This document shows positions 1 to 16,852 of a DNA stretch of 16,951 nt, one piece after another. The position numbers and the translations under genes are program-made. Position 1 is the stretch's first letter. Each line of letters opens with the position of its first letter. The notes below the pieces were generated by a model. The model was not told the origin of the DNA. It ran no database searches and saw only the letters and a list, made by a program, of their open reading frames with translations. The stretch comes from a virus, in the IMG/VR virus record IMGVR_UViG_3300029887_000063. One strand, given 5' to 3'.

Positions 1-99
1 CCTGGGAACACGCCACACGCCCATAGCTGTAAACCCGCACGCCTCCCCGCTAGGGACGCTTCAACCACCACGCCACACGTGGTGTGTTTGTAACGCGCT
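1..99. repeat. Left copy of the exact 99-bp direct terminal repeat (circular-closure overlap)
   Basis: Bases 1-99 (cctgggaacacgcc...gtaacgcgct) are identical base for base to 16853-16951. The repeat lies in non-coding DNA and contains no tRNA-like or integrase-proximal sequence. Confidence 0.95.
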
Positions 100-173
100 G
101 GGCAAGGCGCGGCCGGGTGCTTTATCGCGCCTCCCCAGCAACCGACCTTCGGCTGGGTCAAGGGCATCTTCAG

Positions 174-296
174 TTATCGGCAGTCGTCGTCGGTGAAGAA
201 ATCACCAAGCCGGACGAGGGCGAGGACAATCCCGAGCATGAGGACCACGAACGGGCTTGCCAGCAGCAGCAGGACGGTCTTGATGAAACGTTTCAC
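174..296 (-). CDS. 40-aa hydrophobic single-pass membrane peptide (MKRFIKTVLLLLASPFVVLMLGIVLALVRLGDFFTDDDCR), unknown function
   Basis: Hand-translated; it falls below the ORF-track length cutoff. GTG start at 296 lies 6 nt after a GAGGA, 2 nt downstream of the stop of the preceding gene. The peptide has a basic N-terminus, about 22 hydrophobic residues and an acidic tail. The + strand ORF 84..353 is its antisense shadow. Confidence 0.5.
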   Translation of the reverse strand: MKRFIKTVLLLLASPFVVLMLGIVLALVRLGDFFTDDDCR

Positions 297-298
297 GG

Positions 299-454
299 TC
301 AATCCTCGTTGAAGCATCGGGTGATCTGTTTCTCAAGATCGTCAAGCTCGTAACCGTTGAACGGGACGCGCACGGTGATGCCTTCTTCCGTCTCAACGAT
401 CAGCTCGAAGAAGCAATGCTGCTTGCCATCCACTCGCTTGACTGTGACGCTCAT
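299..454 (-). CDS. 51-aa acidic hypothetical protein (MSVTVKRVDGKQHCFFELIVETEEGITVRVPFNGYELDDLEKQITRCFNED)
   Basis: Hand-translated. The ATG at 454 overlaps the stop of the upstream gene (ATGA), with AAGGAG 6 nt upstream. Composition is protein-like. Confidence 0.55.
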   Translation of the reverse strand: MSVTVKRVDGKQHCFFELIVETEEGITVRVPFNGYELDDLEKQITRCFNED

Positions 455-687
455 TCCTGGGCTCCTTCCCATTCACGACGGGCGCGCCTCGCGTGCATCA
501 TCGCCTTGTTGATCGCGCCCTTCATCGTCTGAAGGTCGCCCATGTCCAAGCCATCGAAATCGAACGATTGTTCGCCCACCTTGATGCTGCAGGCGAAGCC
601 GTAGGGATTGCCGCCGGTGCATTCCGACGGGTCGATGTCCTGCACATGGAAGTAATTGCTGGTACATTCCGGATTGAAAACACTCAT
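451..687 (-). CDS. 78-aa hypothetical protein with four Cys and a basic C-terminal helix
   Basis: ORF track 451..687. AAGGAG lies 7 nt upstream of the ATG. Amino-acid composition is balanced. It is the first gene of a three-gene coupled operon. Confidence 0.65.
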   Translation of the reverse strand: MSVFNPECTSNYFHVQDIDPSECTGGNPYGFACSIKVGEQSFDFDGLDMGDLQTMKGAINKAMMHARRARREWEGAQE

Positions 688-789
688 TTCACTGCTCCTT
701 GATTCATGGATTTAGGCTCCTTCCTCCGCAGCGATAGGCTTGTAATCGCACGAACCAAACCTTTCAAACAACGAAGGAAGGAAGAATAT

Positions 790-1401
790 ATGCACCTAAA
801 CTTCAGCGACATCATCGCCGTAATTTCGTTGGGTTGGACGGCCGCAACCTTCGGTAGAACGGTTCGACATAGACCAGAGGCATCATGGATGAACTCGTAC
901 ATCGTCACTCGCCTGCGCAACGCGACGCCACCACTGACCGACGAACACGGCCGCTTGCCAGTCAGGAAGGCCATGATTGCCAATGACGGCGATGGGGACG
1001 CTTTCGATGTCCGCGTGTTCGGACACAACTGCATAATCCGCGCATATGCATGGGAAAAACTCCCAAACGGTAGCTGGAAAATTGGCGAGCGGACGATGGT
1101 CCCTCGCATGTCCAACGAAGACGGTGACGACGTGAAAATAGCCATCTGGCTGCCCGATGGCGCGGATGACATGCCCGAGGATGCCAGGATCTGCATCCAC
1201 TGGACCAAATCACCCACAAGACTGCGCCGCTGTGGATACGAAGAGATACCACTCACTTCGGAACTCGCCGACAAATGGTGGGAGGAAAAGGACTGGAAGG
1301 CATCGCACAGACTGGCTGAACGATTCCGCACATGGTGCGCACACCGAAGGTTCCACCACAATCCCGAAGACGCCAGAAAATCACCGCAACCAACCATCTG
1401 A
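790..1401 (+). CDS. 203-aa N-terminally membrane-anchored protein of unknown function (accessory gene; candidate superinfection-exclusion or defence protein)
   Basis: Internal ATG at 790 of ORF 706..1401 is preceded by GAAGGAAGGAAG with a 5-nt spacer. The N-terminal hydrophobic helix FSDIIAVISLGWTAATF is followed by a soluble domain rich in D/E/W. The gene is isolated on the + strand between minus-strand genes and has lower GC than the structural genes. The opposite-strand ORF 684..1472 is Ser-rich and shadow-like. Confidence 0.7.
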   Translation: MHLNFSDIIAVISLGWTAATFGRTVRHRPEASWMNSYIVTRLRNATPPLTDEHGRLPVRKAMIANDGDGDAFDVRVFGHNCIIRAYAWEKLPNGSWKIGERTMVPRMSNEDGDDVKIAIWLPDGADDMPEDARICIHWTKSPTRLRRCGYEEIPLTSELADKWWEEKDWKASHRLAERFRTWCAHRRFHHNPEDARKSPQPTI

Positions 1402-1476
1402 ATCACCGTGACACGTAAATCGAAACCAGAATGGAACAAACCAGAGCCGTAATAGACAAAACAAGGTGCCAATCCA

Positions 1477-1683
1477 TTACTTCACCTCCAACGGAGCCCG
1501 GCCAAGCACGAAATCGGTGGAAACGTCGAAGAATTCGGCTATGCGCGACACATCACGCAACGTGAAATTTGAGCGGCCATGGAATTTGTCGCTGATGGCC
1601 TGCTCGGAGACGCCTAGCTCATGCGCCAGATCGCGCTGTGTGACGTGATTGTCTCTCATGAGTTTTCTTATCTGACTAATCAT
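1477..1683 (-). CDS. XRE/Cro-C1-type helix-turn-helix regulator, 68 aa (one half of the lysis-lysogeny switch)
   Basis: Classic HTH_3 pattern (VTQRDLAHELGVSEQAISDKFHGRSNFTLRDVSRIAEFFDVS). It is divergent from a second HTH gene across an AT-rich 99-bp spacer. No SD is visible, so it may be leaderless. Confidence 0.8.
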   Translation of the reverse strand: MISQIRKLMRDNHVTQRDLAHELGVSEQAISDKFHGRSNFTLRDVSRIAEFFDVSTDFVLGRAPLEVK

Positions 1684-1782
1684 TTAAAAACTTTCAGACT
1701 AAAGATTTGATGAAGTTCTAGACCAAAGATTAACCATATGACGTAGCCAACACGCCGAGTACTACGCTAAAACCGTAGTAAA
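1684..1782. promoter_or_regulatory. Divergent promoter/operator region of the genetic switch
   Basis: G+C is about 36% by hand count in an otherwise GC-rich genome. A direct repeat AGAC[T/C]AAAGATT sits at 1696..1707 and 1720..1731. An inverted repeat TACTACG-n7-CGTAGTA at 1760..1780 abuts the ATG at 1783. Confidence 0.6.
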
Positions 1783-2082
1783 ATGAATTTCATGACAATG
1801 CTAGATATTCAGCCGAGCGCTACATTGCGCAGGCAGGACGTTGTTGCGATGAATACGAACATGATCTTGTCCAACAGCGGTTTAATGAAGAAGGACCTTG
1901 CTAAGGCAATGGGGCTCTCGCCGCAATCGATGGCGTCGAGGCTTCAGAGCAAGGCCGATTGGACCATTGACGAAACTTGCGCGGCGGCCGATTTCTTCGG
2001 CGTCCCGTTGATGGCTTTGCTGGATGAGAACTTAACGCCAGCAAAAGCTATGGAATATATAAAAAACCGCCGCCCCGGATGA
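1783..2082 (+). CDS. HTH DNA-binding regulator, 99 aa (second half of the switch; co-oriented with integrase)
   Basis: HTH-like segment LMKKDLAKAMGLSPQSMASRLQSKADWTIDETCAAADFFGVPLMALL. The start is uncertain: ATG at 1783, 1792 or 1798, or the ATG at 1849 (MNTNMIL...). Confidence 0.65.
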   Translation: MNFMTMLDIQPSATLRRQDVVAMNTNMILSNSGLMKKDLAKAMGLSPQSMASRLQSKADWTIDETCAAADFFGVPLMALLDENLTPAKAMEYIKNRRPG

Positions 2083-2099
2083 TGGGAACGACGGTCAAT

Positions 2100-2136
2100 T
2101 GGTAGCGGGGCATGGATTTGAACCGTGGACCTCTGG
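2100..2136 (-). other. attP core candidate: mimic of a tRNA 3' end (variable loop, T-arm, acceptor 3' strand, discriminator, CCA)
   Basis: The minus strand reads CCAGAGGTC-CACGG-TTCAAAT-CCATG-CCCCGCT-A-CCA. This is a canonical GGTTCAAATCC T-loop plus a 7-nt acceptor strand, A73 and CCA. No matching 5' acceptor strand or D-arm is present, so it is a fragment. It lies about 90 bp upstream of the integrase gene. Confidence 0.7.
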
Positions 2137-2174
2137 TAACGTTGTTGCCCAGAGGTCCACGGTTCAAATCCATG
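2111..2174. repeat. Perfect 26-bp inverted repeat (12-nt loop) built from the tRNA-like segment; likely strong hairpin, terminator or insulator
   Basis: catggatttgaaccgtggacctctgg (2111..2136) is the exact reverse complement of ccagaggtccacggttcaaatccatg (2149..2174). It is followed on the + strand by a T-rich tract (gattatttgatttta). Confidence 0.9.
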
Positions 2175-2227
2175 AAGCCCGATTATTTGATTTTATCCTA
2201 GCGGCGTAATGCCGCCGGCCGCCAAGG

Positions 2228-3067
2228 ATGCCGGCCGTGAGTATGCACAAAAAGCTGCCCCCTGCTCAGTGGCGGGACGAAATCACCCTATGGCTCGAAT
2301 CGCTCACGGCGGCGGGTCTCAGTCAGGACACGATCAACACGCGGCGGTGCAAGATAGGGCACGCGGCGCGGTGCCTGGATAAATCGCCCTATGACGTGAC
2401 GTCAGAGGATCTAGTGCATTGGACGGCCTCGCAGTCCTGGAAGGCGGAGACGCGCAAGGGCTATCGGAATACGCTCGTCGGTTTTTTCCGGTGGCTGCAT
2501 GCCACGGGCCGGCGCGCGGACGATCCGGCGGTCGCGCTGCCGAAGGTGCGCAAGACGCGGCCGCATCCCCGCCCGTGCCCCGACGCGCACATATACGCCG
2601 CCATGTGCGCCGCGAACGATGTGGAACGGCTCATGCTGCGCCTTGGTGCCGAAGCCGGGTTGAGACTGTCCGAAATCGCGGCCGTCCACTCGCGCGACGT
2701 GCTGGAAGGCGACGCCGGCCCGTCGCTGATAGTGCGGGGCAAGGGCGACAAACAGCGCATAGTGCCCATAAGCGAAGACCTGGCGAAGCGGATAACGGCC
2801 GCGCCCGGTTGGCTGTTCCCCGGCCGGTGGCGGGGACACGTCGAAAAATCGTATGTGTCCCGCCACCTCACACGGCTGCTGCCGGACGGTTGGGGGCCGC
2901 ACTCGCTGCGCCACCGGTACGCCACGCGCATGTACGAGACCACGCACGATCTGCTGCTGGTCTCGAAGCTGCTGGGACATAGCAGCGTGGAGACCACGCA
3001 AATCTACGTGGCGATGCCGGATAGCCGGCTGCGCGTCGGCCTGGACGCGGTGACGTTGGCCGGCTAG
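2228..3067 (+). CDS. int: Tyrosine recombinase / phage integrase (XerC/D-like)
   Basis: The catalytic signature is readable: GLRLSE (Arg I), KGDKQR (Lys), HSLRHRYAT (His-x-x-Arg II) and LGHSSVETTQIYV (His plus the Tyr nucleophile). There is an N-terminal SAM-like core-binding region. The start could instead be the ATG at 2243. Confidence 0.9.
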   Translation: MPAVSMHKKLPPAQWRDEITLWLESLTAAGLSQDTINTRRCKIGHAARCLDKSPYDVTSEDLVHWTASQSWKAETRKGYRNTLVGFFRWLHATGRRADDPAVALPKVRKTRPHPRPCPDAHIYAAMCAANDVERLMLRLGAEAGLRLSEIAAVHSRDVLEGDAGPSLIVRGKGDKQRIVPISEDLAKRITAAPGWLFPGRWRGHVEKSYVSRHLTRLLPDGWGPHSLRHRYATRMYETTHDLLLVSKLLGHSSVETTQIYVAMPDSRLRVGLDAVTLAG

Positions 3068-3068
3068 A

Positions 3069-3389
3069 TTATTTGCCGGCCATGCGTAGAGGGTTGTAGG
3101 CGACGCCGAAACCGCCGGTGAGCACGCCGCCCGCGAAGATGATGTATTCGCCGATGTCGGCGTGGCCCGCGAGGGCGACGCCTCCACCCGCGAGTACGGC
3201 GGCGAGGCCGACGACGTAGATCACCGTTCGGATGGTCTCGCTGAACACGGGGGTGTATCCCTTGCTTGCGTCGATCTGCGCGGCGGCTTTGTGGTCGGCC
3301 ACGCCTGGTGTGTTCGTGTCCGTGGTGATGGTGTTGTTCTCGGCGGCGAGCATCTGCTCGCTGGTGGGCTGTTGCATGTCGGCGCTCAT
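3069..3389 (-). CDS. Putative holin, 106 aa with two C-terminal transmembrane helices
   Basis: The ATG at 3389 overlaps the endolysin stop (ATGA). Hydrophobic helices are TVIYVVGLAAVLAGGGVALAG and YIIFAGGVLTGGFGVAY. Only the last 106 codons of track ORF 3069..4160 look protein-like. It sits immediately downstream of the lysin. Confidence 0.6.
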   Translation of the reverse strand: MSADMQQPTSEQMLAAENNTITTDTNTPGVADHKAAAQIDASKGYTPVFSETIRTVIYVVGLAAVLAGGGVALAGHADIGEYIIFAGGVLTGGFGVAYNPLRMAGK

Positions 3390-4171
3390 TTGGCGGTGTC
3401 CTTCTCCTGTGCGGTCATGGTGATGACGAGTTTGTCGATTTTGTCGCTGACGGCCTTGGCGGTCCTGTCGGCGATGTCCTCGGGGTTGCTGCCGAGCGCC
3501 GTGGTGAGCTTGTCGATCTGCCGCTGCTGGGCCGCGACGGTTGCCTGCAGGGCAGTGACGGCTTTCTTCACGTCGCTGATACGGCCGGGCAGTTCGTAGT
3601 TGATGGCGTTGTACATGTTGCCGCCCAACGCGCTCTTGTTGTAGTTGTATCCCCATATTTCGGCTGCTGTTGCCATGTCGATGTCTCCGTATCCGTTGAT
3701 TTGGTTTGCTTTGTTGATGATGTACCGCCAGTTGAGCCCGTTCGGGCACAGGTCCGGGCAGGCCGGGTGCGCGTATGGAGGCACGTCCCGGTGCAGGAAT
3801 ATGTTCCTGCCGCGTTCCAGCTTGCCGAACCCGTACCGGCGGGCGATGTCCGCGCATAGGCGGGCGCTGGCGTCGAGGCATGCCTGGGTGCATGGGATGA
3901 AGTCGAGTCCGCCCTGGTGCTCGATGCTGATGGTCTGGCAGTTGCTTGTGTAGCTGCCGTCCGCCCATGCGGCATCCGTCTCGGCGACGTACTGGTGGGT
4001 CTCCCCGTTGCCGCCGATGCCGTAGGTGCTTGATGCCTGGTATGAGGCACGCTGGAAGATGTTGTCGGTGCCGGCGAGCCAGCCGGCCATGATGTGAAGG
4101 GTGATGCGTGTGACGCGGTATCCCCTTCGCCCCGCGTAGTGGTTGGGGCTGCCTATCCATGTGATGCTCAT
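3386..4171 (-). CDS. Endolysin: N-acetylmuramoyl-L-alanine amidase (Amidase_2/PGRP-type) with a coiled-coil-like C-terminal region
   Basis: Start at internal ATG 4171 (MSITWIGSPNHY...). Amidase_2-like landmarks are ITLHIMAG, ASSTYGIGGNGETHQYV, AWADGSYTSNCQTISIEH and HRDV...CP. The C-terminal ~90 aa are heptad-like (VKKAVTALQATVAAQQRQIDKLTTAL...). Confidence 0.8.
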   Translation of the reverse strand: MSITWIGSPNHYAGRRGYRVTRITLHIMAGWLAGTDNIFQRASYQASSTYGIGGNGETHQYVAETDAAWADGSYTSNCQTISIEHQGGLDFIPCTQACLDASARLCADIARRYGFGKLERGRNIFLHRDVPPYAHPACPDLCPNGLNWRYIINKANQINGYGDIDMATAAEIWGYNYNKSALGGNMYNAINYELPGRISDVKKAVTALQATVAAQQRQIDKLTTALGSNPEDIADRTAKAVSDKIDKLVITMTAQEKDTAK

Positions 4172-4178
4172 CGCATGC

Positions 4179-4463
4179 TTATTCCTTTCCGTCGTCGTTG
4201 TCCTGGAAGAGCCCGTCGGGCGCGCTCGGTGGCGGTGGAGGCGCGCGCCGCCATATCGCGTCCACAAGTTCCCTGTTCCACAACCACAGGAGCTGTCGGT
4301 CTCGGGCGCTTTGGTCGAGTTGGCGTTGCGCCTCGATGAGCAGGCGGCTGGCGTCGGTGTCCTTGTCGCTGCGTGTCTTCGCCCATGTGGCCACGAACTG
4401 GACGCACGCGCCTACGGCCACGCCTCCCGTGCCGATGAGTGCGCTGATTATCGATTCGGTCAT
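4179..4463 (-). CDS. 94-aa single-pass membrane protein (possible second holin/antiholin-like lysis factor)
   Basis: The ATG at 4463 overlaps the upstream stop (ATGA). An N-terminal TM helix IISALIGTGGVAVGACVQFVATW is followed by a charged helical segment and a PPPPPSAP tail. It sits directly upstream of the endolysin. Confidence 0.55.
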   Translation of the reverse strand: MTESIISALIGTGGVAVGACVQFVATWAKTRSDKDTDASRLLIEAQRQLDQSARDRQLLWLWNRELVDAIWRRAPPPPPSAPDGLFQDNDDGKE

Positions 4464-5086: not shown

Positions 5087-6609
5087 GGTTCCTCCGTGAT
5101 GGTGGTTGGTTGCTGATAGGTGTCGACGAGGGATAGTTCGGCGAGGGTGAGTGCGCATTGACTCCACGTGGCGGGCCATGCGCCCATGCTTGCCCAGGTG
5201 GTCGCGGCAGCTGCGGCGACTGGCAGCGGCCATAACGTCACCTCGTTGCGGAGCAGTGGCCGGCCGCTCCTCCACTGGTAGGTGAGCGTGCCGCCGATGC
5301 TTGCCCACGCGCCGGATGCCGCCGGGTTTCCGTCGTCGCCGGCGAGCCGTGACGACGTGGCTCCCTGGATGACCAGCGGGCCGCTGCTGGCGGTGAGATA
5401 CAGGCGCGCGTGCGTTGCTGGGTCGAGCCTGCGGCTGTCGAACACGATGGTCTCCGGCCGCAATCGCCGGTCAACCGTGACGAGCAGACGGGAGAACGCC
5501 GCGCGTTCATCGTCGCCAGGCGTCCATACGGTGCCGCCTGCGCGGGTCCACACTCCGCCGCTTTCGTCCGCTGAAACCACGTCGGCTTCAACGGTGACGC
5601 TTGACTGGGTGGTTTTCAGGTTGGCCGGCAGCGTGCCGAGGTCGGATAGCTCGGTGTCGTGCTGGTCGAACTCAAGCACGCCGTCGCTTGCCTTCGCGGT
5701 CTTGCCCTGGATGACGAACTGCGTGACGGGTTCCGGGATGGTCAGCGTCTGTTCGTCATCGATGATGATTTCGGCAGCGTCCAAACCGTCCAGCGTCTCT
5801 CCGGTCCAGTCGGTCACGGTGAACCGTCCCACGGTATCGACGCCGAGCGTCACGGGAACGCCGAACGGCATGTAATCCAGACGGCTCACCGCACGATCCG
5901 GGTATTCGTACCAGATGGGCCACATGCTCTCATGCGCGAACGTGCGATGCAGCAAATCCAGTTGGGACGGATAATCGTCGGTCTTATAGGCCGCCATGGA
6001 ATCGGTGGAGGTCAAACCGGATACGGAGACCCGGGGAGCGTCGGCGTCGGCGGCGCGCCGGTTGAGCTCTTCCACACGGCCGCTCATGCCGGCGACCCAA
6101 TGCAGTCCCGCATACCTGGCGTCGGATGACGTTGGCCCCTGCTTCTGCAATCTCTTCCACAGGATCATGCGACCGCTGGCGCTCAATTCCAGCAGCCATC
6201 CGTCGCCATGCGGTCGCGCGTCGCCGCCGTTCTGCACCAGTCCGTCGAACAGGGTGATTGCCGTGCTGGACGTGCTGGAAGGCAGGCCGGGCGTGTAAGC
6301 CTGGTGCATCGCTTCCACTCGCATATGCTGCGCCGACCATGGGCCCATATCGTCTCGGAGCATGCCCCACGTGGGCTGTTCGCTGATCTGCACGAGCACG
6401 CGGGTCCCGGCCAATGTGAGCGCGCGGCCGGTGAGCCACCCGGTACGATCCCGCAAGGTGAACGACATCACCGACGGTTCGGGCTGTTCGGCGAGGTCAT
6501 CGGTGCCCCACTGGATGCTGAAGCCGGCCAACGCGGCCACGTCCTCGGCATGGTCGTTGACGGACTTCCAGCCGTCGCCCCAGTCCAGGAACATGAAACA
6601 CTGCTGCAC
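5083..6609 (-). CDS. Minor tail protein (distal tail / baseplate-hub-like), 508 aa
   Basis: It lies immediately downstream of the tape measure. The GTG at 6609 overlaps the TMP stop by 1 nt; an alternative ATG is at 6594. Size and position fit a Dit/Tal-type protein. No motif-level assignment is possible by eye. Confidence 0.6.
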   Translation of the reverse strand: MQQCFMFLDWGDGWKSVNDHAEDVAALAGFSIQWGTDDLAEQPEPSVMSFTLRDRTGWLTGRALTLAGTRVLVQISEQPTWGMLRDDMGPWSAQHMRVEAMHQAYTPGLPSSTSSTAITLFDGLVQNGGDARPHGDGWLLELSASGRMILWKRLQKQGPTSSDARYAGLHWVAGMSGRVEELNRRAADADAPRVSVSGLTSTDSMAAYKTDDYPSQLDLLHRTFAHESMWPIWYEYPDRAVSRLDYMPFGVPVTLGVDTVGRFTVTDWTGETLDGLDAAEIIIDDEQTLTIPEPVTQFVIQGKTAKASDGVLEFDQHDTELSDLGTLPANLKTTQSSVTVEADVVSADESGGVWTRAGGTVWTPGDDERAAFSRLLVTVDRRLRPETIVFDSRRLDPATHARLYLTASSGPLVIQGATSSRLAGDDGNPAASGAWASIGGTLTYQWRSGRPLLRNEVTLWPLPVAAAAATTWASMGAWPATWSQCALTLAELSLVDTYQQPTTITEEP

Positions 6610-8678
6610 TAGTTGCCCCGCTTCCTGTCGTAATCGCCGAGAATCTTCCTGATCTCGCGCGCCACGCCCTCACGGTCCACCGGAGCGTTGAACGTGACGT
6701 TCACCACGGTTCCGCCCACCGTGCCGCCGTTCATGCCGGCGTCCAGGCTGAGCCCTCCCATACGGCCGTTGATCCGTGAGATGGTGCGCCGCACGTCGGT
6801 GTCGAAACCGCTGCGCAAGCCCTTGGCGAAGCCCTGCATGATGAGACGGCCGTTATTGACGAGCATCACGGCGTCGTATTCCGGCGGTCCCTTGTGCTCG
6901 GTTATCCAGTCGCCGATGCCGGAAATCCAGCCCGTCACGGAATCCCACATGCTTTTCAGACCGTCAAGGAAACCGCTGATGATCGATGCGCCGGCGTTGT
7001 ACAGCAGGTGCCCCACATTGCCTATCGCGCCGGTGATACGTCCCGGAATGCCCTTGAACCACGCCACGACTGCATCCCACTTGTCGGTCGCGAACTGCGC
7101 TGCCGACTGGAAGAAGCCGCCAATCTTGCCCGGCAACGCCTGGAAGAATCCCACGATGTTGCCCACGCACGATCCCAGCCATGATGTGAACGACGCCCAT
7201 ATCTGACGGCCGGTCTCGGTCTGCGTGAAGAAGTAGACGAGAGCCGCCACCAGCGCGGCTATCGCGGTGATGACGATGACGATGGGGTTCGCGTTCATGG
7301 CCGCGTTCATGGCCCACTGCGCCACAGAAGCGGCCGTGGTCGCCATGCTGAATCCCTGCAACGCGGACACGACGGCGCTGATGGCCGAAGCGACCTTGAA
7401 CGCGGCGAAACCCGCCGCGATGCCCACAAGCGCGGACGCGACGGGTTCCGCATGCTCGGATACCCAGTCGCTGAACGCCGTGAGCTTGTCCGAAACCATG
7501 CCGACGATATCGGCAGCGCCGTTGAATGCGTCACCCAACGCCTGGCCGGCGCCGGACGCGCCGCCCATAGAATCCGCCAACGGCGTGAACTGGCCGATGA
7601 CGTCACCGGCCGCGCCGGCGAGGTTCTTGCACGCCTCCCACACCGCGCCGAAGATGTCCGCAGCGGCCTGCATCGGGCCGGTGTTCTGGAATGCGGCCAC
7701 GAACTCGCCGGCCTTCTGCTTCGCCGTATCGAACGCGCTCACCGCGTTGTCGCGGATGGTGAGCAGGAAATCAACGACGGGACTGTCTTCATCGATGTTG
7801 AACGCTTCGCGCAATTCGCTGCTGAAATCACCGTCACGCACGAGCTTTATCACGCCCTGCAATCCGGTCGTCGCCTTGCCGCTGAACGCGCTGATCTTGT
7901 CGGCGGCCACGGTCATGGCGCTGGTCACGGCCGGTTTGAACAGATTGAAAGCGTCCGTCAATCCGCCGGTTACTGCGGCCTCAAGATTGCCCAGCGCGCC
8001 TTCCATGGTCTGCGTGCTCGTGGCCGCTTCCTTGGCGACGTCGGTCATGCCCAGGTCCATGATGGCCTTGTTGAACTCGTCGGCCGTGATCTCGCCTTTT
8101 TCCATGGCCTCGCGGAAATTGCCCGTGTACGCGCCCGCGTTCAGCATGGCTTCCTGGAGCTTGCCGGCCGCGCCCGGTATGGCGTCTGTCAGCTGGTTCC
8201 AGTTCTCGGCCGTCAATTTCCCCGCGCCGGCGGTCTGCGTCATGACCATGGCGACGCTTTTGAACGTTTCGGCGTTGCCGCCGGCCACGGCGTTCAGGTT
8301 GCCGGCGGCTTCGGTGAGTCCGACGTAATCCTGGATGCCGTTGGCCGCGAGCTGCGCCGTGGTGTTCTGCACGGTGGTCAGGTCGTAGACGGTTTTGTCG
8401 GCGTATTCGCGCGTGGCCTTCGTCGCGGCCTCCACGGCGCTCGTGTCGAAGCCGGCGAAATTCATGGTGTTTTTGAACTTGTCCGTGGAATCGGACATGT
8501 CCATGACCGCGCTGGTGAAGCCCTTGAGCGTGTCCCACAACGCGGAAACGCCCTTGAGCGCCGCGCCGCCCATGAACGTGCCGAACGCGCTGGCCTTGGC
8601 CGTGACCTTGGACAATGCCTTCACCGCGTCGTCGCTGTTGCCAGTGATCCGCACGCTCATGATGGCGCTTTTACCCAC
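6609..8678 (-). CDS. Tail tape measure protein, 689 aa
   Basis: It is the largest real gene, Ala/Gly-rich and helical. It has a typical TMP core (LTAENWNQLTDAIPGAAGKLQEAMLNAG...ITADEFNKAIMDLG) and internal hydrophobic helices (PIVIVITAIAALVAALVYFF). The GTG start is 6 nt after GGAGGAGG. It follows the G/GT chaperones. Confidence 0.9.
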   Translation of the reverse strand: MGKSAIMSVRITGNSDDAVKALSKVTAKASAFGTFMGGAALKGVSALWDTLKGFTSAVMDMSDSTDKFKNTMNFAGFDTSAVEAATKATREYADKTVYDLTTVQNTTAQLAANGIQDYVGLTEAAGNLNAVAGGNAETFKSVAMVMTQTAGAGKLTAENWNQLTDAIPGAAGKLQEAMLNAGAYTGNFREAMEKGEITADEFNKAIMDLGMTDVAKEAATSTQTMEGALGNLEAAVTGGLTDAFNLFKPAVTSAMTVAADKISAFSGKATTGLQGVIKLVRDGDFSSELREAFNIDEDSPVVDFLLTIRDNAVSAFDTAKQKAGEFVAAFQNTGPMQAAADIFGAVWEACKNLAGAAGDVIGQFTPLADSMGGASGAGQALGDAFNGAADIVGMVSDKLTAFSDWVSEHAEPVASALVGIAAGFAAFKVASAISAVVSALQGFSMATTAASVAQWAMNAAMNANPIVIVITAIAALVAALVYFFTQTETGRQIWASFTSWLGSCVGNIVGFFQALPGKIGGFFQSAAQFATDKWDAVVAWFKGIPGRITGAIGNVGHLLYNAGASIISGFLDGLKSMWDSVTGWISGIGDWITEHKGPPEYDAVMLVNNGRLIMQGFAKGLRSGFDTDVRRTISRINGRMGGLSLDAGMNGGTVGGTVVNVTFNAPVDREGVAREIRKILGDYDRKRGN

Positions 8679-9101
8679 GGTCCACCTCCTCCATGTGTTC
8701 TATCTCGTCCTGCAATAACCTCATGCCGGTGCCCCAATCGAGTTCGCTGGCCTCATGCCTCCATGCCCACGGCGTGCCGCCGAAACGGGCCGCGAGCAGG
8801 AACGACAGCATGCCCAGCGAATCGTCGGGCCACTCGGCTAGACGGTAGGGTTTTCAGCGGTCGGCGTCTCCACGTCGATGTCGTCCACCTCTTCCAGCCA
8901 CTGCGCGTAAGGCATGGTGGTGTTGCCCGCGTATCGTTGCGCCAGATACGCCATGTAGTACGACTGGCGAATCTTGGATGCCTCGCCCGGCGCCCATCCC
9001 TCCTTCTGCGCGTGCTCCTCCGCCGACGTGATGACGCGCGGCGTCAACGGCGCTTCGTCCACATGCCCGTCGGTGTACGTGACTTTCGCTGTGCTTCGCA
9101 T
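8671..9101 (-). CDS. Tail assembly chaperone GT-like fusion produced by -1 programmed ribosomal frameshift
   Basis: The -1 frame opens exactly at the slippery site and runs 59 protein-like codons (KPYRLAEWPDDSLGMLSFLLAARFGGTPWAWRHEASELDWGTGMRLLQDEIEHMEEVDRG) to the TAA at 8671..8673. It has no start codon or RBS of its own. It ends 8 nt inside the TMP gene. Confidence 0.7.
8838..9101 (-). CDS. Tail assembly chaperone, G-like (87 aa, zero-frame product)
   Basis: Small acidic protein located between the tail genes and the TMP. GGGAG lies 8 nt upstream of the ATG. A slippery heptamer lies 4 codons before its stop. Confidence 0.75.
   Translation of the reverse strand: MRSTAKVTYTDGHVDEAPLTPRVITSAEEHAQKEGWAPGEASKIRQSYYMAYLAQRYAGNTTMPYAQWLEEVDDIDVETPTAENPTV
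8847..8853 (-). promoter_or_regulatory. -1 frameshift slippery heptamer A_AAC_CCT
   Basis: The minus strand reads gct gaA AAC CCT acc gtc tag. This is the canonical X_XXY_YYZ form. After slippage the tRNAs re-pair on AAA and CCC. Confidence 0.7.
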
Positions 9102-9913: not shown

Positions 9914-9930
9914 GATGGTTGTTCCTTTCG

Positions 9931-10619: not shown

Positions 10620-10629
10620 GTGCGCCTAC

Positions 10630-12204
10630 TCAGGCGGTGGCCTTCGGACCCAACGGCATGACGCCGCCGGTGAACACGGTCGCGAACGCCGCGTAACCGT
10701 ACACGCTGTAATTGGAAAGCAGTTTCGTGGTGTCGTCCTGCTGGAGCTGGAACGGGCCGCCGGCCTCCCACATCTGCAACGCGGTCGGGTCGATGAACGC
10801 GGCCGTGTTCGCGGCGGCACCCGGCACCATCTGCACGGGGACGGACAGCATGCGGCCGGTGATGCCGGTAAGGCTCAGGCTGCCGAGCTTGTCCACGCCC
10901 TCGCCGGAAACGTCCATGAGCGCGTCGCCGCTGCGCGTGATCTTCGCCATCTTGTCAAATACGTCCTTGCTGACCGCGAGCGTGCCGAGCTGCGCGCCTC
11001 GGCCGTCCGCCGCCTCGGCCGCGTTGATGATGACGGTAATCCACTGGTCGGCGGTGAGCGCGCTCACGGCCGCCGGCGTCTCCAGCTTGTTCGTTGCGGC
11101 GCCGGTGATGGCGGCAGTCAGCTGCGCGCGGGCCGCCGCCTCCACCGCGTTGCTGTAAGCGATGGTGAGCGCGCGGAGCGCGGTATCGAGCGCGGGCGTG
11201 TTGCTGCGTTCGATGACCTGGCGCGACAGCGGCGCGTAACCTCCATAGGTCTTCACGGCGGCGGTCGCGCTCGTGAGCGTGATTTTGCCGGTGGTCAGGG
11301 CCTCGCCCTCGGCCGTCTGTTCGGCCACCTTCAGCGTGTTAGAGCCGAGCTTGAGATATTCCAGCGTCATGCCGGTGGCCGGCAGCGCGGCATGCTGGAA
11401 CAGGTTCGCGACGCTACGGCGCGACTGGATGAGCTTGATCTGGTCGGCGACCCACTCGTTAGTGTTGTTCGTGTCGGAGCTGGAAATCAGGTCGCGGGCC
11501 TCGCGCATGAACTCATACGCGGTGTCGTCGCCGGCCGCAAGCGCCTTCGCGAACTCGCCGGCCGAACGGTATTGGCCACCGATGACGTGCGGCGGGTCCG
11601 GCTTCTGCCGGCCGATGGTGTCCGCGAGCGAACGGATCTGCATTTCGAGCTGGTCGAAACGCGATTCCGTCGCCGGCTGCTGTTCGTTTTCCACTGTTTC
11701 CTCCTTGGTGTCGGTTTCCTGGTTGACGTGTTCCTGGTCCCGTTGGCCGGTGATGGCCGCGCCCGTGTACGCGGGTATGCCGGTGACGGCGACCTCAAGC
11801 AGTTTCACGGCGCGCCGCACGTACACGCTCGTGTCGCCCTCGGTGCGCTTGTCGGTGGTCACGGGCATGAAGCCCACGCTGAACGAATCAAGCACGCCGT
11901 CGCGGATCAGCTGCACGGCGTCGCGACCCTCGGCCGTGTCGCTGATTGACGCGGTGATGTGCAATCCGTCGGCCTCGCGCGTCGCGTTCGTGACCTTGCC
12001 GATGAGACGGCCGTGGTCACGGCTCAACTTGGTGCGTGTCGTGTCGCCGAAATCGCAATCCGGCGCGAACTCCTCGGCCGCGCCGCGCCACAATCCGATG
12101 CGTTGGCCGAACGGCACGGCGATGCCCTCGATGCGGGTACCGTCGCCCTGGTCCTCGCGTAGCTCGATGCCCTTCACGGTGATGGTGCGTACCTCTTCGC
12201 TCAT
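10630..12204 (-). CDS. Fused HK97-family prohead protease (S78) and HK97-fold major capsid protein, 524 aa
   Basis: The ATG at 12204 is preceded by GGAGG and overlaps the portal stop (ATGA). The N-terminal ~165 aa carry S78-like blocks (IEGIAVPFGQ, VLDSFSVGFMPV, LLEVAVTGIPAYTGA). An acidic linker (DQEHVNQETDTKEETVENEQQPATE) follows. Next come a coiled-coil delta-like segment (SRFDQLEMQIRSLADTIGRQ) and about 330 aa of capsid-like sequence. There is no internal stop or RBS. Confidence 0.8.
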   Translation of the reverse strand: MSEEVRTITVKGIELREDQGDGTRIEGIAVPFGQRIGLWRGAAEEFAPDCDFGDTTRTKLSRDHGRLIGKVTNATREADGLHITASISDTAEGRDAVQLIRDGVLDSFSVGFMPVTTDKRTEGDTSVYVRRAVKLLEVAVTGIPAYTGAAITGQRDQEHVNQETDTKEETVENEQQPATESRFDQLEMQIRSLADTIGRQKPDPPHVIGGQYRSAGEFAKALAAGDDTAYEFMREARDLISSSDTNNTNEWVADQIKLIQSRRSVANLFQHAALPATGMTLEYLKLGSNTLKVAEQTAEGEALTTGKITLTSATAAVKTYGGYAPLSRQVIERSNTPALDTALRALTIAYSNAVEAAARAQLTAAITGAATNKLETPAAVSALTADQWITVIINAAEAADGRGAQLGTLAVSKDVFDKMAKITRSGDALMDVSGEGVDKLGSLSLTGITGRMLSVPVQMVPGAAANTAAFIDPTALQMWEAGGPFQLQQDDTTKLLSNYSVYGYAAFATVFTGGVMPLGPKATA

Positions 12205-13322
12205 AATGTGACCTCCTGCGGTGTGGTCTGGTTGATCGGCGCCCATCCCTCACGGGCGCGCGCCTCGTCCACCGTCATGAATCCGGCGGATATGGCGGTC
12301 TGGTAGGCGCTGTAACGGGTGTTCGTGTCGGAACGATGCAACGAATCCCAGTCGGGCATGCACCATTGCCCCTCAGGCAGCAGCGACGTGAGGGCCTCGC
12401 AAATCTCGTCAGCGTAGGCCGACAAAGTGTATTCCGCGAACGTGAGCCACTCTTGCTCGATGTTCGAGTAGGTCAGCGAAGTGCCTTCCACCTTCGCGAG
12501 CATCAACGACGCCGGGATGCCCAACAGGCGGGCTATCTGCGTGGTGTTGAACTGCTGGGACTCGATGAATTGCAGGTCTTCGGGGCTCAACGCCAACGGC
12601 GTGTAGTCCAGGCCCTTGCCGAGCACGCGCACGCCGCCGGCGCCGCCCTTCGCCCACCGTTCGCTAGCGGTCCTCGCGTCCTGGTCGCTTAATATCTGGT
12701 CGCTTTTCAGGATGCCGGCGGGCCGCGCCGTGTTGTCCAACCAGTTCGATGCGTAGGCGCGAGTGTCCTGCGCTCCCTCGATCTCCTCGCGGGCCGCGCT
12801 GATAGGGCCCATGCCGCGCAAACGGCCGGCCACGTTCAACAGCTTCAGATGCACGATGCGGTCGGCGCCGTAGTCCACGCCACGGTACGAGTAGCGCAAG
12901 CGCGGGTTAGCCGGGTCCATGTTCAGGTCAGTGACGGTCACGAGCTGGGGTGGCAGACTGCGCACTCCCACGAGCACGCCGGCCGCCTCGACCTTGAGCA
13001 GGAACGCGTTACCGTTCAACGCGAGAGCGGAAACGAGGTCGCCGAACAGGTCGCGGCGGCTACGGTTCAGGTCGGGCCGGGTGATGAGCGTGCTCGGCCG
13101 CATGCGCGAGCCGTCCGGCGCGTACTGGATCAGCGGCAGCTTGCTGACCGCCGTCTCGATGATCTGCACGCCGCGAAATACGGTGGACAACGCCAGCGGG
13201 TCATGCGACGTGGACAATCGCGGCGGCAATGTCGGCGCGTCCGCTTCCTCCACGTCGTCCGTCGTCTGCGCCGCGCGAAGCAACAGGGCGGCGGTGTTGG
13301 AGATGCGGGAAATGAAGCTCAT
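12201..13322 (-). CDS. Portal protein (HK97 family), 373 aa
   Basis: It lies between terL and the protease. Size and sequence blocks fit the family (ALNGNAFLLKVE, ...QQFNTTQIARLLGIPASLM...). Confidence 0.85.
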   Translation of the reverse strand: MSFISRISNTAALLLRAAQTTDDVEEADAPTLPPRLSTSHDPLALSTVFRGVQIIETAVSKLPLIQYAPDGSRMRPSTLITRPDLNRSRRDLFGDLVSALALNGNAFLLKVEAAGVLVGVRSLPPQLVTVTDLNMDPANPRLRYSYRGVDYGADRIVHLKLLNVAGRLRGMGPISAAREEIEGAQDTRAYASNWLDNTARPAGILKSDQILSDQDARTASERWAKGGAGGVRVLGKGLDYTPLALSPEDLQFIESQQFNTTQIARLLGIPASLMLAKVEGTSLTYSNIEQEWLTFAEYTLSAYADEICEALTSLLPEGQWCMPDWDSLHRSDTNTRYSAYQTAISAGFMTVDEARAREGWAPINQTTPQEVTL

Positions 13323-13371
13323 GCGGCCGATTCAACCGCCCGCCGGCGCGCCACGCCGAAACCGGCGTATA

Positions 13372-14860: not shown

Positions 14861-15171
14861 TGCGCCATGTCCTTGAGCAGCTGCGCGAGGTCGCCGGCCT
14901 TCGCGGACGTTTCGGACGGCTGCAACCGGTCGATGGTCTCGTTGTAGCTCGTGACCATGCGGGAGATGTCGCGGCCCTTGCGACACAGGCGGTCGATGGT
15001 GCGGGCGCACGTGAGCAGCAGCGTACACAGGGCGCGCCGTTGCGGCGTCAGCTGCGCGGCGTCCTGCAACAGCTCGGTGACGAGCTCCTTGGTCGAGCTG
15101 GTCAGCGGGTTGGTCAGCTCGTCGCTGTCCTCCATGCCCGGAAGTGTCATCTGCTTGTCGTTGTCGTCCAT
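14857..15171 (-). CDS. terS: Putative terminase small subunit, 104 aa
   Basis: It lies directly upstream of terL and is coupled to it. The ATG at 15171 is preceded by GGAG with an 8-nt spacer. It is a small helical acidic protein. The assignment is positional. Confidence 0.6.
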   Translation of the reverse strand: MDDNDKQMTLPGMEDSDELTNPLTSSTKELVTELLQDAAQLTPQRRALCTLLLTCARTIDRLCRKGRDISRMVTSYNETIDRLQPSETSAKAGDLAQLLKDMAQ

Positions 15172-15334
15172 GATTTGCGCTCCTAGCCTATCGGTGTTAC
15201 TGTCTGGAACTGGCTTCATTCCGCCGATTGGTGGAGCGCCGCGCCCTTGCCGGCGCGGCTTTTTTTATTTGGGTTGGGGATACGAAATCGGTGGGCGCGG
15301 GGTGTCCCTTGACCATGGCCGTTTAAAAAACCGG
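15172..15334. promoter_or_regulatory. Probable cos (packaging recognition/cleavage) region
   Basis: This 163-bp non-coding gap lies between the HNH gene and terS, the position cos occupies in HK97-like HNH-dependent phages. It contains a GC hairpin, an A/T tract and G-rich runs (ggttgggga...ggtgggcgcggggtgtccc). The exact ends cannot be called. Confidence 0.45.
15238..15266 (+). terminator. Canonical intrinsic-terminator structure oriented on the + strand (antisense to the operon)
   Basis: An 8-bp GC stem GCCGCGCC (15238..15245) pairs with GGCGCGGC (15252..15259) around a 6-nt loop. Seven T follow (15260..15266). On the minus strand the run precedes the hairpin as A7 and no U-tract follows. 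Confidence 0.6.
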
Positions 15335-16060
15335 CTACCATCGCGGCCGCGCCGACACGGCCGGCGGCGAAGACGGGCCGTCGATCAGGCGAAGCCGCGA
15401 AAGCTGCGTGCGCCGCGTCTCCAGCATCCCGTCCACCTTCGCTTGCGTGATGCCGAGCCGGCGCCATCGCTTCAGCAGCTCCACGTCTTCACGGCCACGC
15501 CGGCACTCGGCCATGCGCCCGCGCAACAGCTGGTCGTCGGCGTCCAGGACCACCACGTCATAGTTCAACGCGATCCACTCGGCCAGCATGTTCGGACTGT
15601 TGCGGGACGTCGGCAGCGCACGCACCAGCCACACATGCCTGGCCGTGACCATGCGGGACACACGCCGGTACGCGCTGCCCCACAACGTATCGGCCAGCGC
15701 GTGCGCCTCGCTGCCGCCGTCCACGCACGCGACCGCCAGCCTCGACGGGTCCACCACGATATCGCCCGGCGCCATGTGGTCGCGCACATACGCGGTCTTG
15801 CCCACGCATGGCGGGCCTATCACGGCCGTGACCTGCGCGCCGAAGCCGGACACCACACGATCCGCGCGCAACGAATTGCAGTGCTTGCACGCCGGCCGAA
15901 GATTGCTCGGAACGGTCGGGCCGTAGAGACTGTAAGGCTTCACGTGGTCCATGGTCTCCGTGCCCCTGTGCGTGCATCCCGGCATGTCCAGCCAACAATC
16001 GGAGCCGAACGTGAGCAGCACTTGCGCGGCCATGTTCGGCGGCACCCTCTTGCGCTTCAT
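15335..16060 (-). CDS. HNH endonuclease fused to a P-loop NTPase/kinase-like (AAA_33/zeta-like) domain, 241 aa
   Basis: The ATG at 16060 overlaps the upstream stop (ATGA) after GGGGAAGAGG. The HNH block is CWLDMPGCTHRGTETMDHVKPYSLYGPTVPSNLRPACKHCNSLRADR. It is followed by Walker A VIGPPCVGKTAYV, VWLVRALP, and VVVLDADDQLLRGRMAECRRGRED. Confidence 0.8.
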   Translation of the reverse strand: MKRKRVPPNMAAQVLLTFGSDCWLDMPGCTHRGTETMDHVKPYSLYGPTVPSNLRPACKHCNSLRADRVVSGFGAQVTAVIGPPCVGKTAYVRDHMAPGDIVVDPSRLAVACVDGGSEAHALADTLWGSAYRRVSRMVTARHVWLVRALPTSRNSPNMLAEWIALNYDVVVLDADDQLLRGRMAECRRGREDVELLKRWRRLGITQAKVDGMLETRRTQLSRLRLIDGPSSPPAVSARPRW

Positions 16061-16227
16061 TGCCTCTTCCCCATCCACTTGTTCACATCGTCCACGAGAT
16101 ACACCACGCGGCCCTCCAACATGTACCACTTCGGCCCACGGCCCTGCTTGCGCCACATGTAGAGCGTCTGACCGGACTTGCCCAGGAACTCGGCCAGCTC
16201 ACGCGCATACAGGAAACGACGGCCCAT
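16057..16227 (-). CDS. Xis/AlpA/MerR-superfamily (HTH_17) DNA-binding protein, 56 aa
   Basis: The pattern is MGRRFLYARELAEFLGKSGQTLYMWRKQGRGPKWYMLEGRVVYLVDDVNKWM. The ATG at 16227 shares one base with the upstream stop (TGATG). Confidence 0.75.
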   Translation of the reverse strand: MGRRFLYARELAEFLGKSGQTLYMWRKQGRGPKWYMLEGRVVYLVDDVNKWMGKRQ

Positions 16228-16586
16228 CAGTGGCACCACGCCTTCAACGACTGGAGCAGGTCGGCACGGTCGAAGACAAGACGGCCACCCACACGCTTCG
16301 GCTTGAGCACGATGCCCTCGCTAATCAACTGCTGCATGGCATGGTCGCCGTCCGCGTCGGTCGTCGGGCTGATGTGATCCAGCTTCAAAATCCTGATGAC
16401 GATGGAACGCTCCACGGTGTCCGTGCCGGTGGTGTCATACTCCAGCTTCGGAAGATTCCATTTCACCGCGTTCTTCATGTCCTTGGCACGGATGGCCTTG
16501 CTGGTCACATGCTCACGACGATACTTCTTCTTGACCTTCCTGCGTTTGCGTTCCTCGGTAGAAATGTAATCAACTGCATAGCCCAT
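16227..16586 (-). CDS. 119-aa basic protein with an excisionase-like C-terminal wHTH (candidate RDF or late regulator)
   Basis: I place the start at internal ATG 16586. Codons upstream of it in ORF 16227..16892 are rich in rare A/T-ending codons (ATA, CTA, AGA, ACT, TAT, TCA). The protein has a Lys/Arg-rich N-terminus, and its C-terminus LISEGIVLKPKRVGGRLVFDRADLLQSLKAW resembles Xis-type wings. Confidence 0.5.
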   Translation of the reverse strand: MGYAVDYISTEERKRRKVKKKYRREHVTSKAIRAKDMKNAVKWNLPKLEYDTTGTDTVERSIVIRILKLDHISPTTDADGDHAMQQLISEGIVLKPKRVGGRLVFDRADLLQSLKAWCH

Positions 16587-16852
16587 GATGTTGTCCCCAA
16601 TCTGTGAGTAGGTGAGTGGATAAGTCTTGTGGATGAAACGTCTTGTGTATTTCGGATGGAAGGAGGTTAGAGCGGGGAACCCTATAGCGGAAAACAGGAA
16701 GCCAAAAGGCCTCATGAATTCCAAAGGGTTCCCGCATGTGAAGCATTTCGGCATGGTGCCAAGGCCGTCGCATGTGGTCAGCGGCGCAATGCCGCGACGA
16801 AGGTCTGGACGCGCAGCGCTGGCCGTGGCCAGCCGATGGTGCCGCTTTCGTC
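16587..16852. promoter_or_regulatory. Non-coding leader of the long minus-strand operon (continues across the circular junction into 1..173)
   Basis: No convincing ORF is present. GC drops at 16590..16700. A direct repeat GTCTTGTG sits at 16624..16631 and 16640..16647, 40-60 bp upstream of the first operon gene. Confidence 0.5.

Follow-up and report, generated by a model that had tools for sequence, protein, structure and literature searches.

The best-described relatives of the element reported here are prophages of Bifidobacterium. Bb423phi2 (18,221 bp) and 689b-1 (18,260 bp) of B. breve, which are similar to Bl-1 of B. longum NCC2705, are inserted at a gene for tRNA-Met adjoining metA and consist mostly of structural genes (PMC6109161). 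Bl-1 and 689b-1 were initially regarded as cryptic, Bb423phi2 was not induced, and the group shows a relationship to the small Gordonia (cluster CW), Arthrobacter (cluster AN), and Rhodococcus (RRH1) phages (PMC6109161). In the literature, small siphoviruses of these clusters are described as lacking most nonstructural genes, and a protease-scaffold-capsid fusion is common to small-genome actinobacteriophages (PMC7302621). The DNA analyzed here, referred to as the window, is the whole of IMG/VR record IMGVR_UViG_3300029887_000063 (16,951 nt). On the reading that we consider probable, it is the excised form of a temperate Bifidobacterium siphovirus of the Bb423phi2/689b-1/Bl-1 group, which would grow autonomously and have its DNA copied by the host replisome. 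The identity and lifestyle are well supported, the mechanism of DNA replication less so. The element is among the commonest prophages of human gut Bifidobacterium, yet it has been treated as cryptic or possibly functional. The features added here are the attP form, a frameshifted repressor, a covarying RNA of ~340 nt, tandem DnaA boxes, and a lambda O-like gene in the corresponding slot of distant relatives.

The excised state was deduced from the att region. The exact repeat of 99 bp at the two ends closes the window into a circle of 16,852 bp (63% GC) on which 25 genes were counted, in agreement with the closure and the approximate gene number given in the initial annotation. The repressor gene, the att core, and the integrase gene are contiguous and constitute an intact attP junction internal to the contig. 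Because this junction is carried, the window is excised DNA, either circular or derived from a concatemer. The same junction was found independently in contig L103 and in the IMG/VR contig L022, giving three independent samples, and excision therefore occurs in nature. These natural attP forms are new relative to the published work, in which excision of Bb423phi2 was not seen after mitomycin C (PMC6109161).

The junction was located by comparison of the window with integrated copies, and the tRNA was called by ARAGORN. In Bifidobacterium contigs, the integrated copies occupy the 3' end of a tRNA-Met gene that has metA and the atp operon to one side and glgE to the other, and the junction, which the initial annotation had proposed to seek, maps to window positions ~2097-2136. 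The published att core of 39 bp is TGGTAGCGGGGCATGGATTTGAACC(A/T)TGGACCTCTGGGT (PMC6109161). The window core is TGGTAGCGGGGCATGGATTTGAACCGTGGACCTCTGGT; it agrees with the published one apart from the known variable position and the final bases, at which the phage arm diverges. Exact copies of the integrase gene were present in >4,000 sample blocks, integrated in Bifidobacterium contigs, and exact copies of the integrase and portal genes recurred across thousands of metagenome and genome samples, in bacterial contigs of up to >1 Mb. The source names of matching proteins were Bifidobacterium adolescentis, B. longum, B. pullorum, B. pseudocatenulatum, and B. catenulatum, and near-identical copies reside in several Bifidobacterium species. 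The near-identical copies in the collections are mostly integrated, and attP forms are rare.

A circle could also be produced by an assembler collapsing the attL and attR repeats. Many contigs of relatives, of ~16.5 kb, do end inside the att core, which indicates that assembly breaks there. However, the core measures 38 to 40 bp while the closing overlap measures 99 bp and lies 2 kb from the att site, the attP junction is internal to the contig, and L103 and L022 share it independently. If the 99-bp overlap reflects the k-mer size of the assembler, attP did not arise from a collapsed repeat of 38 to 40 bp. An artifact of this kind was judged to be extremely improbable. The abundant 10- to 20-kb contigs were also considered as free phage DNA; this was rejected, as contigs such as L105 end in the att core. 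L105 (16,519 bp) has its position 1 inside the core, and the stand-alone contigs of ~16.5 kb correspond to assembly breaks at the attL/attR repeat.

Membership in the tRNA-Met bifidoprophage group is well supported by the site, the att core, and the described gene plan. The window shares with Bb423phi2, 689b-1, and Bl-1 the host genus, the tRNA-Met/metA site, a near-identical 39-bp core, a mostly structural gene content, an integrase and a repressor at opposite ends of the prophage, an ssrA-like tag (…LAA) on the int-side arm, and a variable 3' part of the distal tail gene. It differs in size and gene number (16.85 kb and 25 genes, against ~18 kb [18.2] and ~30 genes for the Bb423phi2 group), in having an allelic cassette rather than an inversion in the tail gene, in the presence of attP where the excised form of Bb423phi2 was undetected, and in the frameshift of its repressor. 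No near-identical phage was found in GenBank, where short tape-measure matches were the only ones obtained. With a genome of <20 kb, a siphovirus gene set, and the protease-scaffold-capsid fusion, the window has the traits of the small-genome actinobacteriophages, and the bifidoprophage group belongs to this wider lineage.

Relatives were collected by scanning an alignment of the capsid fusion against one genome per prokaryotic species, which gave 179 relatives. In the fully syntenic ones, the gene order is conserved as repressor, cro, an early region of ~2 kb, HNH, terS, terL, portal, fusion, tail, lysis, and integrase. Direct repeats resembling tRNA 3' ends bound 24 of 26 examined elements, which measure 16.3 to 18.5 kb (three repeats of 14 to 15 nt are less reliable). 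Their hosts are Bifidobacterium, Actinotignum, Arcanobacterium, Mobiluncus, Actinomyces, Microbacterium, Luteimicrobium, Leucobacter, and Sanguibacter, and overall prophages from about a dozen actinobacterial genera retain the compact plan. The IMG/VR contigs that carry the RNA motif of the family, described below, cluster at 15.7 to 18 kb (n = 79). One of them is contig 637000031_000001 (L183; 17,856 bp), which may be Bl-1 of NCC2705. Much larger integrated relatives, named in the initial annotation as a sign of a deletion derivative, were not encountered among the bounded elements. Since the integrated relatives are of the same size, the data support the conclusion that the element is neither a deletion derivative nor a misassembly. 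The reading of the window as a complete, closed genome of a temperate siphovirus without a recognizable replication module is likewise supported.

The same data bear on whether the element is a cryptic or gene transfer agent-like prophage that excises occasionally, does not replicate, and is inherited only vertically. The early classification of Bl-1 and 689b-1, the uninduced Bb423phi2, and the predominance of integrated copies over rare attP forms would fit such a state. Against it, all 25 genes are intact and syntenic relatives occur across species at 45 to 50% protein identity, which argues for selection on function. Near-identical copies in several Bifidobacterium species, receptor-binding cassette alleles that imply ongoing host range selection, and attP junctions in three independent samples point the same way, and the cryptic state was considered improbable.

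Isolated phages of the same plan are available for comparison. McGonagall and GRU3 belong to Gordonia cluster CW, a group of small temperate Gordonia phages (PMC5559632). Like the window, the small Gordonia phages are temperate siphoviruses, of 16 to 17.7 kb, with terS/terL, a portal, a capsid-protease fusion, a short tail module, a tyrosine integrase adjoining the repressor, an HNH gene at the cos site, a tRNA attB, and no annotated replication gene. They differ in host genus, in having the lysis genes among the head genes, and in integrating at tRNA-Lys. Emperor (16,604 bp) is temperate, with integrase and repressor genes, and its annotated genome lacks a replication gene. Quaker (Microbacterium cluster EE, Orlajensenviridae; 17,450 bp) has 25 genes in the same order, with an HTH (helix-turn-helix)-HNH gene pair before cos and again no annotated replication gene. 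Cluster EE phages have 33 to 35% identity to the window in the capsid fusion and ~41% in the portal but are strictly lytic, lack the integrase and repressor, carry an Lsr2-like gene, and give no match to the RNA model. The phages of Arthrobacter cluster AN and Rhodococcus RRH1 (14.3 to 15.6 kb) share the minimal siphovirus plan and the capsid fusion, with ~30% identity in terL; they are lytic, smaller, and more distant.

The rarity of the size and of the missing replication genes implied by the initial annotation is thus contradicted by isolated and described counterparts such as Emperor (16.6 kb; Gordonia CW/DM). The phage type is already described and very common, and the claim of novelty for a tiny phage without replication genes falls. 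As a minimal chassis, the isolated relatives (Emperor and cluster EE) are already available and are more practical. The distinction from satellites made in the initial annotation was upheld. Phage-inducible chromosomal islands (PICIs) and their capsid-forming variants (cf-PICIs) are of similar size and carry an integrase together with packaging and capsid genes. Satellites have no tail genes, usually lack other virion genes too, and need a helper phage, whereas the window has a complete tail module and lysis genes. Satellites normally carry a primase or replicase, whereas none was found in the window with four profile libraries.

We infer autonomy of the window phage because isolated relatives of the same plan form plaques; by this analogy, autonomous growth is favored over propagation mainly by integration and induction. 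Emperor and Quaker grow lytically on laboratory hosts that are prophage independent. This growth is contrary to helper dependence, in which the element would make its own virion and borrow replication from a larger coresident prophage. Such a partner is conceivable. Bifidobacterium strains often carry several prophages (PMC6109161). In L016, positions 1-4664 hold a second phage-like element with a gene for single-stranded DNA-binding protein (SSB), Band_7, and small genes, placed in tandem at the same tRNA-Met and abutting the prophage; it constitutes polylysogeny at one att site and is a possible interaction partner. However, in nine of ten portal-anchored contexts the prophage is alone at tRNA-Met, from the metA side to the glgE side, and the same plan persists in about a dozen genera. 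Dependence on a helper is accordingly rated as having little chance of being correct.

The conservation of small size and of absent replication genes across those genera and in plaque-forming isolates sharpens the question of how tailed phages of 15 to 18 kb copy their DNA, on which the small-phage literature, as searched, is silent. The initial annotation had found no recognizable replication module, and this was borne out: the 25 proteins gave no match to a primase, helicase, polymerase, Rep/initiator, SSB, or recombinase in Pfam, PHROGs, NCBIfam, or PADLOC, and sequence searches of PDB gave no match to a replication protein. Structure models of two conserved proteins of unassigned function, the HNH protein and a 119-amino-acid (aa) protein (p119), were searched with Foldseek, and nothing replicative was retrieved. 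Likewise, no replication family of Pfam was detected in the long early-region open reading frames (ORFs) of 33 relatives. Neither a convincing iteron nor a long repeat was found elsewhere in the genome by repeat search, and the GC skew gave no clear origin signal.

A different result was obtained for some distant relatives. In elements from Ornithinimicrobium (L047), Streptomyces (L042), and Leucobacter (L049), a gene just upstream of HNH was assigned by PHROGs to lambda-O-like/DnaD-like initiators (E values of ~5e-7 to 2e-24). Two Actinotignum relatives gave the same assignment weakly. These relatives share the capsid-protease fusion and related head genes with the window; a size of ~16.6 kb was indicated for L049 only, and weakly. 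The slot of the putative initiator gene corresponds to the place of a structured RNA and the p119 gene in the Bifidobacterium clade. No remnant of an O-like gene was detected in the window, L011, L023, Emperor, or Quaker, and profile comparison gave no relation between p119 and the O-like initiators. Judged from these sequences, some branches of the lineage have a predicted initiator and the Bifidobacterium branch does not.

The RNA in this slot measures ~340 nt, is free of ORFs, and lies between the last small early ORF and the p119 gene. It is split by the ends of the window and is contiguous in L015 (6295-6640). In the initial annotation, this stretch was not recognized as a structured noncoding element. 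Its nucleotide identity is 68 to 88% in prophages of six other Bifidobacterium species, as measured with nhmmer and blastn, compared with ~47% for the capsids. From seven sequences, RNAalifold predicted 99 pairs, with compensatory changes in 36. A covariance model of the 220-nt core (R1) matched the window at 1-123 and 16754-16951 and recovered the RNA from every relative of the Bifidobacterium clade, where slot and strand, that of the late genes, were invariably the same; it gave no match in other genera or in Quaker. The structure was further evaluated with 73 distinct sequences, in an alignment that was fitted to the model and thereby favors the structure. Paired cells made up 93.8%, against 38 to 47% with shifted partners, compensatory changes were present in 49 of 58 pairs, and the covariation score was 0.45, against 0.05 to 0.07. 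G-U pairs were frequent, from which it was deduced that the RNA is read in the late direction. The window RNA also folds better than 100 of 100 shuffled sequences (z = -2.98). Rfam 15 contains no corresponding family, as only chance-level matches were obtained on the window, L015, and L029. The RNA therefore looks like a new, previously unannotated structured-RNA family. Structure was unsupported in the equivalent gaps of Emperor and Quaker, the gap of the Emperor-type Gordonia phages giving z = -0.6.

The 3' end of the RNA is formed by a terminator-like hairpin. The hairpin and its T-run were present in all cluster representatives inspected, and the box after the T-run, GGTTCCCCGCTCTAAC, had its core CCCCGCTC in 66 of 74 sequences. 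With strict regular expressions, the 5' motif was matched in 24 of the 74 sequences and the terminator in 20, while variants of both occurred in all cluster representatives inspected. The function most likely for the RNA and its terminator is to govern read-through into the late operon.

Between the conserved box and the start of the p119 gene, many relatives (e.g., L121, L116, and L109) have tandem copies of TTATCCAC(A), 0 to 5 in number and in one orientation. The TTATCCAC 8-mer is 150-fold denser in this 160-nt region than elsewhere in the same loci. Among the DnaA box types annotated for the oriC of B. longum are TTATCCACA and TTACCCACA, and the units of the array match these host types. 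In the window alone there are two exact DnaA-box matches, a number reached by 37 of 200 shuffled sequences. Chance occurrence, suggested by these shuffles and by L011-type relatives without boxes, was dropped as an explanation after the family-wide count. In the small Gordonia phages, no DnaA-box array was examined or seen.

The tyrosine integrase recombines attP (2097-2136) with the tRNA. A scheme is proposed in which the DNA would be copied by the host replisome alone from a cis-acting site, and packaging would be of the cos type with the HNH nuclease assisting. The early-late intergenic region would act as a control hub. This region, with its structured RNA and host-type DnaA boxes, is the best candidate for the cis-acting site; the lambda-O-like initiator gene occupies that slot in some distant relatives. 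More specifically, and only tentatively, the lambda-O-like initiator may have been replaced in the Bifidobacterium branch by an initiator-free origin provided by the RNA, the DnaA boxes, or both. As at ColE1 origins, priming or opening of the DNA would fall to the RNA, and the adjoining host-type DnaA boxes would load the host helicase. The analogy to ColE1-type origins is a functional one: both have no initiator of their own, a long structured RNA directed toward the start site, and one or more DnaA boxes downstream. They differ in that there is no sequence relationship, the RNA of the window ends in a terminator-like hairpin, and the boxes are missing in many relatives; neither an antisense RNA, an RNase H site, nor Pol I dependence is shown for the window RNA. 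If an initiator-free origin proves true, this would be a tailed phage that replicates without encoding any replication protein. For this question, the DnaA-box array and the covarying RNA are two concrete and clonable candidates.

Several points weigh against copying by the host replisome from this region. Neither excision nor an increase in copy number of Bb423phi2 was seen after mitomycin C (PMC6109161), and replication has never been observed for the tRNA-Met bifidoprophage group. Of 61 distinct relatives, 24 lack the boxes, which are therefore neither a universal origin nor essential to the family, and no AT-rich unwinding element was seen beside them. A role in transcription control would suit the terminator-like hairpin before the late operon no less well than a role in priming. 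A small or divergent initiator may also be hidden among the gene products: p119 could bind the TTATCCAC repeats as iterons and recruit the host helicase. The p119 gene is kept in all relatives of the Bifidobacterium clade, beside the repeat array and in the O-like initiator slot, and the repeats vary between lineages, as iterons do. The p119 model (predicted local distance difference test [pLDDT] score, 84) has a long basic helix and a winged-helix-like C-terminal domain, which would suit such a role. However, p119 does not significantly resemble any initiator in sequence, profile, or fold, and Foldseek returned no significant fold match of any kind. Its homologues are confined to Bifidobacterium prophages, and the sole recurrent match, a weak one in 11 of 25 members, is to a "transcriptional regulator" PHROG. 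Moreover, the repeats are exact to the host DnaA box consensus, and lineages free of repeats still keep p119. An initiator role for p119 was thus considered unlikely, and the early proteins p78 and p57 are weaker candidates than p119. Copying by the host replisome from a cis-acting site remains the preferred interpretation.

The repressor of the window departs from that of its relatives. Integration-dependent immunity, in which the viral repressor bears an ssrA-like tag that is lost upon integration, has been described (PMC6109161). In L011, L012, L014, L016, and L019, the repressor ORF continues across the att core; the prophage form ends in ...FEPWTSGL, and an ssrA-like tag, NVVAQRSTVQIHEARLFDFILAA, is added in the reconstructed viral form. 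The family thus has the tag read-through. Frame analysis placed the window repressor one base off the tag frame, with a TGA at 2080-2082, ~15 nt short of the att core, and the frame is therefore broken in this copy though the tag-coding arm is present. Besides the window, the exact 99-aa allele was found in just two short contigs, of which one is an attP form; no lysogen contig had it. The copy with the frameshifted repressor may be altered or impaired in lysogeny control.

The genome is rich in spurious ORFs, and genes were chosen by third-position GC content and cross-checked against gene calls on 99.9%-identical contigs. The resulting features are listed in Table 1.

Table 1. Features of the window and lambda-O-like initiator genes of relatives (the latter in the coordinates of each locus)
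Feature	Coordinates	Strand	Basis or remark
Terminal overlap	1..99	.	Exact 99-nt match to 16853-16951
Structured RNA, 5' part	1..177	-	Conserved GATAAC/GATAAT (-10-like) motif at 5' end
Early small protein p57, 57 aa	299..472	-	Homologues in L026 and L036
Early small protein p78, 78 aa	451..687	-	Homologues in L035 and L036
Low-GC cargo gene, 231 aa	706..1401	+ (lysogeny strand, amid early genes)	GC profile
Cro-like HTH_3 regulator, 68 aa, first early-transcript gene	1477..1683	-	Pfam HTH_3, E 1e-10; PHROG regulators
Immunity repressor, 99 aa	1783..2082	+	phrog_4583 repressor, E 8e-11
attP common core	2097..2136	+	Identical to host tRNA-Met 3' end
Perfect 26-bp inverted repeat, 12-nt spacer	2111-2136 / 2149-2174	.	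Repeat search; 100% complementary
int-side arm encoding ...NVVAQRSTVQIHEARLFDFILAA* ssrA-like tag	2137..2209	+	Reconstruction of viral versus prophage form
Integrase, tyrosine type, 279 aa	2228..3067	+	Pfam Phage_integrase, E 1.5e-20
Holin-like small protein, 106 aa	3069..3389	-	Position alone
Endolysin, N-acetylmuramoyl-L-alanine amidase	3386..4171	-	Pfam Amidase_2, E 7e-18
94-aa protein, probably membrane/lysis accessory	4179..4463	-	Gene calls; weak phrog_2525 match
Distal tail/receptor-binding protein, 208 aa	4460..5086	-	C-terminal allelic cassette; one cluster member named tail fiber
Distal tail protein, 503 aa	5083..6594	-	Position after tape measure; conserved in relatives
Tape measure	6609..8678	-	Pfam TMP_3, E 7e-38
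Tail assembly chaperone G (8838-9101); -1 frameshift product G-T extends to 8671	8671..9101	-	Frame analysis
Tail completion/neck protein, 127 aa	9105..9488	-	phrog_5, E 3e-10
Major tail protein, 140 aa	9491..9913	-	phrog_4574, E 2e-23
Two head-tail connectors, 121 aa and 108 aa	9931-10296 and 10293-10619	-	Synteny with Quaker adaptor/terminator genes
Prohead protease-scaffold-HK97-type major capsid fusion, 524 aa	10630..12204	-	Pfam Peptidase_S78 and Phage_capsid_4, single ORF
Portal	12201..13322	-	Pfam Phage_portal, E 1.5e-72
terL, 483 aa	13409..14860	-	phrog_9, E 3e-37; 34-38% identity to small Gordonia phage terL
Probable terS, 104 aa	14857..15171	-	Weak phrog_1496 match, E 0.006; position as Emperor annotated terS
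HNH-terS intergenic region	15172..15334	.	Candidate cos site
HNH endonuclease and P-loop domain fusion, 241 aa	15335..16060	-	Pfam HNH and AAA_33
HTH_17 protein, 56 aa, excisionase-like or regulator	16057..16227	-	Pfam HTH_17, E 2e-7; phrog_66 excisionase/regulator, E 1e-9
Conserved 119-aa protein (p119), first gene past leader RNA	16227..16586	-	Homologues; model pLDDT 84
DnaA-box-like repeats TCATCCACA (16636-16628), TTATCCACT (16623-16615), inverted TTGTCCCCA (16591-16599)	16591..16636	-	
Conserved box GGGTTCCCCGCTCTAACC after hairpin	16682-16665	-	
Terminator-like hairpin GAGGCCTTTTGGCTTC + CTGTTTTCC	16714-16690	-	Terminator scan on L015, L024
Structured RNA, 3' part	16690..16852	-	Continuation of 177..1
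Lambda-O-like initiator gene, L047	4050-5168		
Lambda-O-like initiator gene, L042	5478-6683		
Lambda-O-like initiator gene, L049	4369-5232		
Lambda-O-like initiator gene, L039	5386-6351		Weaker
Lambda-O-like initiator gene, L051	4882-5826		Weaker

On the minus strand, the genes and elements follow in the order cro, small early ORFs, structured RNA, DnaA boxes, p119, Xis-like HTH, HNH, terS/terL, head, tail, and lysis. The modules named in the initial annotation were largely recovered by the profile searches. The integration and two-HTH switch functions correspond to the integrase and a divergent HTH pair (Cro and the repressor), the HK97-type head to the portal and to protease and capsid domains in a single ORF, and the lysis module to the endolysin. 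The full noncontractile tail was confirmed in the major tail protein, the tape measure, two distal proteins, and a canonical slippery heptamer, A_AAC_CCT, at 8853-8847(-), from which the -1 frame is open as far as 8671, up to the tape measure gene. For the HNH/terS/terL packaging module, HNH and terL were identified by profile, while terS was assigned from a weak match and its position. The unassigned coding capacity, thought to be limited to 174..1401, extends to p119 as well, and the stretch 1-177, together with 16690-16852, is noncoding.

In Emperor, the cohesive ends fall inside the HNH gene at 128 bp upstream of terS, and by analogy the cos site of the window is probably in the HNH-terS gap. 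The HNH protein itself was modeled with AlphaFold2 (pLDDT, 87). The top Foldseek matches of its C-terminal P-loop domain were T4 and Clostridium polynucleotide kinases and adenylate kinases (E of ~2e-3), not helicases. The fusion of HNH to a polynucleotide-kinase-like P-loop domain is kept across the Bifidobacterium clade, while cluster EE phages have the HNH part only.

In the 208-aa tail protein, at least two unrelated alleles of exactly equal length exist for the C-terminal ~135 aa (4466-4863), and the allele swap is seen among genomes that are otherwise ~99.3 to 99.9% identical. An inversion of this part of the tail gene, such as has been published for Bb423phi2, was looked for and not seen; what occurs instead is substitution by another allele of the same length. 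The cassette is likely to mediate switching of receptor binding via recombination.

The remaining observations concern the smaller genes and the att region. The holin-like protein had no family match in the profile searches, and its slot is taken in some relatives by an 85-aa Holin_SPP1 gene. No family match was obtained for p57 or p78 in Pfam, PHROGs, PADLOC, or NCBIfam, and the cargo protein had no family, defense-system (PADLOC), NCBIfam, or structure match. The cargo gene has a 203-aa form in relatives and is widespread in Bifidobacterium prophages, with homologues named from B. catenulatum and a 203-aa form of 90% identity in a metagenome-assembled genome of B. angulatum. Finally, the first arm of the perfect inverted repeat lies in the att core, in the T-arm of the tRNA, and the second is an inverted copy within the tag-coding arm; integrase binding and transcription termination are possible roles of this repeat.

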